A DNA stretch of 54,361 nucleotides from a virus (Duplodnaviria > Heunggongvirae > Uroviricota > Caudoviricetes), in the IMG/VR virus record IMGVR_UViG_2925919700_000001. The stretch is one strand, 5' to 3'. Below the pieces are notes generated by a model. It was not told the origin of the DNA. It saw only the letters and a program-made list of their open reading frames with translations, and did not search any database. Both the position numbers and the translations under genes were made by a program. Shown piece by piece: positions 52,570 to 54,361 of this stretch. Position 1 is the stretch's first letter. Every line of letters starts with the position of its first letter.

Positions 52570-52586
52570 TCCAAGCATGAAACTAT

Positions 52587-52605
52587 TGGCCACAATTTGT
52601 GGCCA
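52587..52605. repeat. Palindrome TGGCCACAATTTGTGGCCA just after the integrase stop
   Basis: Perfect 9-bp arms around a single T; could be a terminator stem or recombination/att-related site. Confidence 0.4.
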
Positions 52606-52627
52606 TTTTACGGAGCAAGATAGAAAC

Positions 52628-54361
52628 ATGGCAAATCAAATTACCAAACTAAAAAATATAAATGTTGTGAAGTTTCGCGGACTGAAAAATATAAACATCG
52701 AGTTTGGTTCTCGCCTAACTGTTATTTGTGGTAAAAATGGCACATCTAAATCCACAATTCTTGGCATTATCGCCCAAATATTTAGCTTTACAAAGGACTT
52801 TACCAAAAACCCTGAGACTGATTTAACACAATATAAAACATTAACAAATGGCAGCTTCAAGTCAGCTTTCAGCGAACATTTTAGGCTTTCAGAACAATTT
52901 GATGTTCCTGGTTCAATGGACGTCAAAATTAGTGTCTATGATGGTGCATCGAACAAACATCTTGAAAAACTAACATTAGGTTTATACAGCTACAGTGACA
53001 GAGATAAATCTAGGCCTGTAGTCAGGGGAAATGATTCAATACCGGAAAAAAACCAAAGTAGAAACGTTACTCATCCTGTTATTTTTTTAAGCTTAGCACG
53101 ACTTCTTCCTATTACATTAAGGACTGATTACTCAACACGGGATGTTCAGTACATCAATGAAAATTCTGATGAAATCAGAATGATGAGTAACCAACTCTTA
53201 CTAAAAAACAATGGAAGCTCAGTAACAGCAACAAAAGGTACTATCGATTCAATGGTTGTCCATGGTGACAATTATGATCACCAATCAGTATCTGTTGGTG
53301 AAGATAATGTTGGACAATTAATCCAGGCAATTTTTTCATTTAAAAGACTGAAGGAAACTTATTCTGATTATCATGGCGGAATATTGTTAATTGATGAAGC
53401 CGATGCAGGTCTTTTCCCTGCGGCACAGTTAGAGCTAATTAATATTCTAACTAAAGCAGCAAAACAATACGATCTGCAAATAATCATGACCTCGCACTCT
53501 CCATTAATAATAGAGGATATCTATAATCGTTCAAAACAAGATAGTGATAGCTTTAAAACAATATATCTTACAGACACATATGGAGATATTAAAACAAAGA
53601 ATAATCTTTCATGGACAGATATCCACGCTGATTTACATGTTGAAACTGTAAAAATTAATGATGACATTTGTCTTCCAAAGGCAAATGTATATTTTGAAGA
53701 CAAAGAAGGTTTCGACTTTTTCAAACAATTGATAACAGATCGAAAAATAAATAAAATATTAAATCCATTAGGAAATATAAATATTAGCTGCTCTGCCATG
53801 CTTGACTTAATGGCAAGAAAAATACCAGAATTTACAGCTAAAAGCTTGATCGTCTTAGACGGTGATGTTGTTCACGACAACAGTGCTAATGCAAAAAAAG
53901 CCAAAAAAGAAAAAAACTTATGTTTGCTTCCAAGCACCTTACCTCCAGACCAAATGATTTTTGAGTTTTTATATAATTTACCACCTGATGATGCATATTG
54001 GGAAAATAAAAATAAATTTACAAAAGCTGTTTTTATGAAAACAGCTAAAGACATAATTGCAACGCTAAAGATTGGTAACGCTCCGATTGATTTAAAAATC
54101 CTTATAGATAATTATAAAAAAGTTAACAAAAACCATGGAGGGAGAGTTAGAAAACTGTTTAAAGATTTTGCACATACGACTCAATTTCAGGCCCAAGTCA
54201 AAGGAAGAGTTAAAGATAACCCATATCGATATTGGGTCGAGAAAAATCCTGTTCAATCGGATAGCTTCAAGAATGAACTAATAAAGAGTCTTAAAGTTAT
54301 TATGATAAGTGGACATGGTGTCGATTCTGCTACCATCTCATCATATCTGTCAGATAACTAA
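52628..54361 (+). CDS. OLD-family / ABC-type ATPase with C-terminal Toprim-like region (candidate anti-phage defence nuclease)
   Basis: Walker A GKNGTSKST, Walker B LLIDEADAGL, TSHSP; C-terminal ...YFEDKEGFD... and ...LIVLDGDVVHD... (Toprim-like E and DxD); strongly AT-rich; an alternative start at 52577 is possible. Confidence 0.55.
   Translation: MANQITKLKNINVVKFRGLKNINIEFGSRLTVICGKNGTSKSTILGIIAQIFSFTKDFTKNPETDLTQYKTLTNGSFKSAFSEHFRLSEQFDVPGSMDVKISVYDGASNKHLEKLTLGLYSYSDRDKSRPVVRGNDSIPEKNQSRNVTHPVIFLSLARLLPITLRTDYSTRDVQYINENSDEIRMMSNQLLLKNNGSSVTATKGTIDSMVVHGDNYDHQSVSVGEDNVGQLIQAIFSFKRLKETYSDYHGGILLIDEADAGLFPAAQLELINILTKAAKQYDLQIIMTSHSPLIIEDIYNRSKQDSDSFKTIYLTDTYGDIKTKNNLSWTDIHADLHVETVKINDDICLPKANVYFEDKEGFDFFKQLITDRKINKILNPLGNINISCSAMLDLMARKIPEFTAKSLIVLDGDVVHDNSANAKKAKKEKNLCLLPSTLPPDQMIFEFLYNLPPDDAYWENKNKFTKAVFMKTAKDIIATLKIGNAPIDLKILIDNYKKVNKNHGGRVRKLFKDFAHTTQFQAQVKGRVKDNPYRYWVEKNPVQSDSFKNELIKSLKVIMISGHGVDSATISSYLSDN

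Follow-up and report, generated by a model that had tools for sequence, protein, structure and literature searches.

The window analysed here is a 54,361-nt stretch of Caudoviricetes DNA (IMG/VR record IMGVR_UViG_2925919700_000001). Its last gene, located on the plus strand beside a prophage integrase gene, encodes an ABC ATPase with a probable Toprim-like C-terminal domain, and a DNA adenine methylase gene follows it just beyond the window. An open reading frame (ORF) of 594 codons runs from 52577 to 54361, and its TAA stop is the window's last triplet. The strings CGKNGTSKST (Walker A), LLIDEADAGL (Walker B), TSHSP, YFEDKEG, and LDGD are all present in the 594-aa translation, in agreement with the first-pass annotation of this DNA. 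RefSeq and the majority of homologues begin the protein at the ATG at 52628 (MANQITKL), and judging from the sequences this start is likelier than the one at 52577. The coding sequence is given here as 52628-54361 (+; 577 aa; WP_001596855.1; alternative ATG at 52577 giving 594 aa), and residues are numbered on the 577-aa form throughout. The gene has a GC content of 33.2%, compared with 50.0% for the window and 44.6% for the integrase gene, which bears out its earlier description as AT-rich cargo beside a prophage integrase. A phage protein family annotated without function, phrog_3940, matched the ATPase over its full length (E = 7e-201).

The segment from the integrase gene (int) to the ATPase gene was 100% identical to chromosomes of Escherichia coli ST131, such as JJ1886, and 84% identical to the temperate Citrobacter phage phiNP. 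It was found in 84 of 5,426 complete E. coli genomes, and the methylase in 86. The gene order in JJ1886 is int, ATPase, methylase and attR, followed by the host gene glaH. The partner outside the window had been expected to be possibly a GajB-like helicase; the next gene, 79 bp beyond the window edge in JJ1886, is instead a 299-aa "DNA adenine methylase" (JJ1886 locus, L001, 11039-11938). It belongs to the D12 class (MethyltransfD12, with a DPPY motif), and the PADLOC model PD-Lambda-5_B matched it over its full length (E = 5.8e-124). Its GC content of 33% resembles that of the ATPase gene within a window of 50% GC. The same methylase ORF follows the ATPase gene in phiNP, where it is unannotated. 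In REBASE-derived tables the E. coli methylase is listed as M.Eco1886ORF14565P (900 bp) with no recognition sequence assigned, and REBASE-style annotation treats it as a Type II methylase.

Residues 1-317 (52628-53578, +) matched the Pfam families AAA_15, AAA_21, AAA_23, and SMC_N, and contain a beta-rich insert and no coiled coil. By these profile matches the N-terminal part is an ABC ATPase of the SMC/Rad50/PtuA type, as the first-pass annotation had supposed, and the Walker A, Walker B, and signature region of OLD-type N-terminal ATPases are all found in it. Alignment of homologues showed that K41 of Walker A (G35-KNGTSK-S42; 52730-52753, +) and D256 and E257 of Walker B (LLIDE; 53384-53398, +) are invariant. 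Within Walker A, Ser replaces the usual second Gly of GxxxxGK[ST], and this Ser is invariant in the 26 closer homologues (50-88% identity). In a sequence search of the PDB, the PtuA-type ATPases of Septu and retron I-A were the strongest relatives of the ATPase head; TsOLD and AriA were far weaker matches, confined to the N-terminal P-loop. Weak matches to RecF, Rad50, and SMC_N could also be taken to mean that the protein is a housekeeping ATPase of DNA repair or chromosome maintenance, a RecF, RecN, SbcC, or SMC paralogue that stands beside a methylase gene by chance. These matches, however, span generic ABC motifs only, and a coiled coil is absent from the protein. The gene is moreover accessory (present in those 84 of 5,426 E. 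coli genomes), AT-rich, borne on prophages or islands, and strictly methylase-linked, so that we disfavour this explanation and consider it very improbable.

The C-terminal half gave a different picture. Its first part (aa ~340-470; 53645-54037, +) is a beta-alpha domain that may be a metal-dependent nuclease. In an alignment of 118 homologues, down to 25% identity, K41, D256-E257, E357-D358, and D411xD413 were invariant, and E357, D358, D411, and D413 were the sole invariant residues of the C-terminal half. The acidic pair E357-D358 is encoded at 53696-53701 (+), and the DxD motif D411-G-D413 at 53858-53866 (+). Conservation of the "EDKEG" motif pointed out in the first-pass annotation was limited to E-D; the second E-G was not conserved. 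In Toprim domains, a Glu follows strand 1 and a DxD follows strand 3. The AlphaFold2 model of the C-terminal half, predicted with a mean local confidence score (pLDDT) of 95.8, has a beta-alpha-beta-alpha sheet in which E357-D358 lies right after strand 352-356, the first strand of the domain, and D411xD413 after strand 406-410, the third. The C-terminal half is therefore probably a divergent Toprim-like metal-binding domain, since its only invariant residues are these acidic ones and the model places them at strand ends.

Profile comparisons did not recover a Toprim family. The C-terminal half (aa 311-594 of the 594-aa form) had no Pfam or PADLOC match at E <= 10, and the Pfam models Toprim, OLD-like_TOPRIM, and DUF4435 were unmatched by the window protein and by all 81 relatives. 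No Toprim was detected in the C-terminal half by a profile search of the PDB. Alignment of profiles with hhalign gave a probability of 96.7% for the ATPase halves of the window protein and P2 Old, and only 0.2-0.3% for the C-terminal half against the Toprim half of P2 Old; all P2 Old relatives checked carry PF20469. The Foldseek matches of the C-terminal model were sub-threshold (best E-value 0.29), and among these weak fold matches OLD-family Toprim structures kept reappearing, with the C-termini of Xanthomonas and Burkholderia OLD proteins having the top probabilities (0.41-0.47). A hidden Markov model (HMM) of the retron type I-B "ATPase-Toprim" protein was matched over the full length of the model by two distant family members (E ~1e-26). 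Of the Toprim-like C-terminus proposed by the first-pass annotation, the invariant Glu and DxD thus stand, and a match to any Toprim, OLD-like_TOPRIM, or DUF4435 profile does not.

The remainder of the protein is a variable, all-helical tail (aa 471-577; 54038-54358, +), as delimited by the model and by comparison of identities. It is different or absent in many relatives of 500-530 aa, and its mean pairwise identity is 41%, compared with 69% for the ATPase head. The tail is possibly a module that contacts the methylase or DNA.

To follow the association of the two genes, one genome per species was scanned, which yielded 80 ATPase loci at 39-88% identity from Gamma- and Betaproteobacteria, Bacteroidota, Mycobacterium, Listeria, Geobacter, and Acidobacteria. 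Adding JJ1886 and phiNP gives a set of 82 loci. The methylase accompanied the ATPase in 79 of them, and in 72 the two genes were immediate neighbours on one strand, the methylase gene beginning 41-172 bp downstream of the ATPase gene. Of the three loci without a methylase, two are contig ends and the third is that of Aggregatibacter. Relatives of the ATPase at 26-33% identity were likewise paired with the methylase. Clustering of all neighbouring ORFs showed no universally conserved gene besides the methylase. The pairwise identities of the ATPase sub-regions and of the methylase correlated (rho 0.74-0.82), and no differential signal was obtained for co-variation of any one ATPase sub-domain with the methylase recognition region. 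In total, the ATPase family comprises at least 300 clusters at 50% identity in several phyla.

The spacer between the two genes carries signals of its own. Directly after the ATPase stop, a hairpin is followed by U7 (L001 10960-11012, 1-52 nt beyond the window's last base), with folding energies of -16.9 kcal/mol in JJ1886 and -16.3 kcal/mol in phiNP (z-scores of about -3.8 to -3.9). Its stem stays paired despite one substitution in phiNP. The hairpin loop contains TGGCCA, and the same hexamer forms the -35 element of a promoter-like site, TGGCCA-17-TATACT, ahead of the methylase gene. This terminator-like hairpin and the promoter-like site suggest that the ATPase and methylase genes are transcribed separately. 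Among the 11 ATPase-methylase spacers of at least 60 nt, TGGCCA occurred in eight (L001, L002, L005, L006, L007, L009, L011, and L030), compared with 0.21 expected. After related loci had been collapsed, it was present in 5 of 7 lineages and was the most widely shared hexamer (Bonferroni-corrected P ~1e-4). The enrichment in the operon's own regulatory spacers suggests TGGCCA as a candidate recognition or autoregulation site and provides a testable lead.

TGGCCA methylation has been reported before. More than 30 alpha-type "orphan" methylases were predicted for TGGCCA in a REBASE-based annotation (PMC5005818). In Photorhabdus, TGGCCA carries N6-methyladenine (m6A) at its final base without an assigned methylase (PMC6092372), and in Acinetobacter baumannii a TGGCCA modification, called N4-methylcytosine (m4C), was ascribed to an "orphan DNA adenine methylase" (PMC10287943). 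Other reported TGGCCA methylation is 5-methylcytosine (m5C). A link between the present methylase and the published TGGCCA methylases (A. baumannii A118 MT2, Chania, and Photorhabdus) was sought and was not established.

The genomic neighbourhoods of the pair point to defence. In about 20 Betaproteobacterial loci, the pair is flanked by a DrmD-like SNF2 helicase gene (7.5e-215) on one side and a Type III-like methylase gene (1.8e-215) on the other, forming a DISARM/Hma-like cluster (for example L026 1662-4553 and L075 3143-4855). It was from embedding of this kind that the HEC systems were discovered (Payne et al. 2024 preprint). Other loci of the pair adjoin Type II or Type III restriction-modification (R-M) genes. 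In E. coli EC190486, an ATPase-methylase pair of 47% identity adjoins intE in an e14-like prophage at icd (L084). A defence role for the ATPase protein, which the first-pass annotation had read from its position and base composition, is very plausible because of the att-proximal prophage slot and the embedding in DISARM/Hma-like clusters. Two further arrangements were observed. An extra 347-aa ORF (4932-5975) lies between the helicase and the ATPase in L026. In L090 (425-3776), a distant ATPase of 486 aa directly follows a classical Type II R-M system made up of an NgoPII-type restriction endonuclease and a C5 methylase; the contig stops 283 bp past this ATPase, short of any methylase partner position.

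The closest described relative of the cassette on the methylase side is PD-λ-5, a validated two-gene prophage system ("ParB/HEPN, methyltransferase") with broad protection, which was cloned in a Δmrr host and interpreted as a compacted combination of R-M and abortive infection, RM+Abi (Vassallo et al. 2022). The need for a Δmrr host implies that the PD-λ-5 methylase is active and is not a Dam enzyme. In both systems a prophage carries a two-gene cassette whose first gene encodes the effector and whose second encodes a D12 methylase of one shared family, and the JJ1886 methylase is 51% identical to that of the PD-λ-5 copy in the P2 hotspot, whose A and B components score 5e-168 and 1.4e-121. 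The effectors differ: component A of PD-λ-5 is a ParB/HEPN protein of ~500 aa, to which the window ATPase is unrelated (BLASTP E = 2.7), and PD-Lambda-5_A was not among the top PADLOC matches of the window protein. The window system hence has the B component of PD-λ-5 and lacks its A component. The methylase family was found in three E. coli prophage cargo slots besides that of JJ1886: L084 at icd, L085 in a lambdoid prophage of O121:H19, and L086 in the P2-like hotspot. In L085 and L086 it is paired with a genuine PD-Lambda-5_A (ParB/HEPN), one of these pairs being convergent. The methylase family thus pairs with at least two unrelated effector types. As far as sequence comparison can tell, the ATPase-methylase pair is an effector-swapped, undescribed relative of PD-λ-5, and owing to this swap, rules of the PADLOC or DefenseFinder type would not call the system.

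The explanation we favour, to which we give about an even chance, starts from what the sequences show: how the domains are arranged, which residues are invariant, the obligate synteny and co-evolution of the two genes, and their genomic context. In this explanation, the two genes make up an R-M-like defence module that depends on ATP, is gated by methylation, and rides as AT-rich cargo between int and attR. The window gene, with its ABC ATPase, its divergent Toprim-like domain, and its variable helical tail, would be the upstream half of the cassette, and the D12-class, Dam-like DPPY methyltransferase of the PD-Lambda-5_B family outside the window the downstream half. A short site, perhaps TGGCCA, would be marked by the methylase in the DNA of host and prophage. 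The ATPase-nuclease would bind DNA as an ATP-dependent head-dimer clamp, or else be recruited by the methylase as Type III Res is by Mod, and would cut unmarked DNA such as an incoming phage genome. With its own promoter behind the terminator-like hairpin, the methylase gene could set up protection independently of the nuclease, which fits the order in which R-M systems are established. An obligate, co-evolving methylase partner is what would be expected if the effector endangers unmarked self DNA. What we infer under this explanation is that the protein is a nuclease, that it is sensitive to methylation, which site is recognised, and that the cassette confers defence.

The resemblance to Type III (Mod/Res) and ATP-dependent Type II R-M systems lies in the generic R-M feature, found here, of a co-inherited and co-evolving pair of a methyltransferase and an NTPase-nuclease, the nuclease being predicted in the present case, and in the possible recognition-site box in the operon's own promoter region. 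The parts are different. The motor of the window system is an ABC (SMC/Rad50-like) ATPase and its putative nuclease is Toprim-like, whereas those systems use a superfamily 2 helicase and a PD-(D/E)xK nuclease; the methylase of the window system is a small, stand-alone, alpha-class D12 enzyme.

Several observations weigh against an R-M-like module. TGGCCA was not depleted in the window as a whole (13 observed, 13 expected), and published TGGCCA methylation is heterogeneous (m6A, m4C, and m5C), with none of it tied to this methylase family. In the ATPase, no domain for sequence-specific DNA binding was identified. The target-recognition region of the methylase is about as variable as its core (65% and 69% identity), unlike in classical diversifying R-M families. 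Aggregatibacter kilianii, alone among the 80 species, has an intact ATPase (L082 5818-7671; all catalytic motifs retained) that is flanked by a Lon-like gene, fabA, and a permease gene, and no methylase gene occurs within 6 kb of it. In addition, the characterised ABC-ATPase/Toprim proteins are abortive-infection effectors and not methylation readers: P2 Old and AriB are tRNA nucleases, and HEC-04 and IbfA are further examples of the abortive type.

These last points are shared by an alternative that we consider rather unlikely, in which the protein is an OLD-like abortive-infection sentinel. The ATPase would respond to a sign of the phage (an anti-restriction protein, for example, or aberrant DNA ends or replication intermediates) and free a Toprim-like effector to act on host tRNA or DNA; the methylase would have an independent first-line or anti-restriction function, or be a guarded component of the trigger ("RM+Abi"). 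All characterised ABC-ATPase and Toprim relatives (P2 Old tRNase, PARIS, HEC-04, and IbfA) work in this way, PD-λ-5 has itself been described as RM+Abi (Vassallo et al.), the conserved recognition region of the methylase suits a fixed module, and the Aggregatibacter ATPase is intact without an adjacent methylase. A sentinel, however, leaves the retention of a single methylase family (79 of 82 loci, down to 26% identity) unexplained; other OLD classes need no methylase. Nor would it account for the TGGCCA boxes in the operon's control regions.

Like P2 Old, GajA, retron I-B, and PARIS, the window protein has an ABC ATPase at the N-terminus and, at the C-terminus, a putative metal-binding domain of predicted Toprim-type topology, with the conserved acidic motif (Glu, DxD). 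It differs from them in having no PF20469 or Toprim match and no C-terminal profile similarity to P2 Old, and its locus has no UvrD-like GajB, no reverse transcriptase or non-coding RNA, and no separate AriB. The OLD-family architecture of the first-pass annotation accordingly holds for the homologous ATPase halves and the acidic motif, and the affiliation with Gabija or PARIS does not hold. For Gabija, the downstream gene is a D12 methylase, no helicase is conserved nearby, and the GajA HMM covers the ATPase motifs only. PARIS was rejected for want of a separate or fused DUF4435 Toprim AriB, and membership in Septu or the retrons was rejected as the matches are generic ATPase-motif matches and the defining partners are missing. 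A review of OLD proteins distinguishes classes without a partner (P2 Old, class 1) and with a helicase (GajA, class 2), a retron (I-B, class 3), or AriB (PARIS, class 4), and has no methylase-linked class.

HEC-04 and IbfA are single-gene ABC ATPase-TOPRIM defence systems (Payne et al. 2024 preprint; PMC12111858). In HEC-04, mutations of the equivalent K, E (E319), and DxD (D375/D377) residues abolish defence, and the protein is toxic when induced. The window protein shares with HEC-04 an ATPase head followed by a C-terminal E...DxD, with a spacing of 54 aa from E357 compared with 56 aa in HEC-04, and members of both families are embedded in helicase/methylase defence clusters. The HMM match is remote: the window protein scored E = 2e-16 in three stretches, mostly over the ATPase, its paralogue in the e14 prophage scored 3e-22, and none of ten distant relatives matched the HEC-04 model at 1e-25. 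HEC-04 and IbfA act alone, whereas the window ATPase family is methylase-linked, so that neither a family-level match to HEC-04 nor stand-alone function applies to the window protein. A tblastn search against plasmids did not recover the IbfA-bearing plasmids.

A tyrosine integrase gene (51403-52569, +), annotated as a site-specific integrase by RefSeq, belongs to an ssrA-integrating, phiNP-like prophage (Pfam Arm-DNA-bind_2, 5e-23; Phage_integrase, 3.4e-16) and stops 7 bp ahead of the ATG at 52577. An excisionase-like ORF (51224-51442, +) overlaps its start by 40 bp, as in phiNP, where the homologous ORF is annotated xis; RefSeq labels it a hypothetical protein. Between int and the ATPase gene lies a perfect palindrome, TGGCCACAA-T-TTGTGGCCA (52587-52605, no strand), with 9-nt arms and two TGGCCA hexamers. 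With the start at 52628 the palindrome is intergenic, in a 58-bp spacer; with the start at 52577 it falls inside the ORF. As RNA it would fold into a hairpin of -12.9 kcal/mol (z-score -2.5). One arm is mutated in phiNP, and a comparable palindrome was found upstream of the ATPase in just 7 of 81 loci. The first-pass annotation had proposed it as the att site or a terminator. The former is ruled out, attR being the ssrA 3' end beyond the methylase gene; as for the latter, no terminator was called there, and the palindrome is not a general upstream feature. It may serve as an operator, as a recognition-site element, or as a weak terminator of int.

The attR site in JJ1886 is the duplicated 3' end of ssrA, GGTTCAACTCCCGCCAGCTCCACCA, located 81 bp past the methylase stop, and this 25-mer is the published attP of phiNP (PMC6456863). 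The phiNP paper labels the ATPase gene "ATPase - fitness" and no more (PMC6456863). Neither a tmRNA gene nor an att core was found in the window, which thus lacks attL. Either the left side of the window is non-collinear with JJ1886 or the window comes from a strain with another left junction.

This location at the very end of a mobile element, adjoining int and att, together with the R-M-like gene order, the AT-richness, and the horizontal spread across phyla, would also suit a selfish module, namely an addiction device that kills after segregation, in which loss of the cassette exposes unprotected sites to a long-lived nuclease, or an anti-restriction device that stabilises the prophage, with phage defence being incidental. 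We think this improbable, as many loci of the pair lie in dedicated defence clusters and not at the edges of mobile elements, and the sister system PD-λ-5 protects against phages. The addiction explanation is in part compatible and overlapping with the R-M-like explanation that we favour.

Several further observations concern the prophage. In JJ1886, ssrA (attL; L083 18069-18431) lies ~45.7 kb upstream of attR, and an RnlA/RnlB toxin-antitoxin pair is located just inside attL. The similarity between the regions after ssrA, on the attL side, and after attR runs ~40 bp past the 25-bp core (L001 12019-12090 and L083 18400-18470), suggesting that an earlier or tandem element integrated at ssrA has left remnants. 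Other low-GC stretches of the window (1-2000, 33001-34000, and 39001-40000; 0.38-0.41 compared with 0.50 overall) may hold further prophage cargo or moron genes.

No description of the ATPase-methylase family was found in the literature, where the ABC ATPase classification of Krishnan et al. 2020 might mention the clade, and there is no specific NCBIfam model and no PADLOC system for the ATPase family. More broadly, and tentatively, for we hold it somewhat less likely than not, many "orphan" or unassigned Type II D12 methylases may be the modification subunits of a widespread and so far unrecognised class of ATP-dependent restriction, in which the restriction subunit is an OLD-like ABC ATPase with a cryptic Toprim-like nuclease. 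Such systems would add a fifth context to those of the OLD proteins, one linked to a methylase, and might read TGGCCA and control their own expression through a recognition site in their promoter. If true, OLD/ABC-ATPase-Toprim immunity and restriction-modification would be joined in a compact two-gene module, and a large methylase family would move from "orphan" to partnered. It would account for a prophage cargo locus in clinically important E. coli ST131 and in the Citrobacter phage phiNP, and would supply a rule that is missing from defence-system finders, by which today the PD-Lambda-5_B methylase alone is recognised and the system goes uncalled. As the PD-λ-5 methylase would be a hub that swaps effector partners, the role of methylation becomes directly testable. 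The pair is widespread, compact, and directly testable, and appears to be kin both to OLD-like and to PD-λ-5/R-M-like systems.

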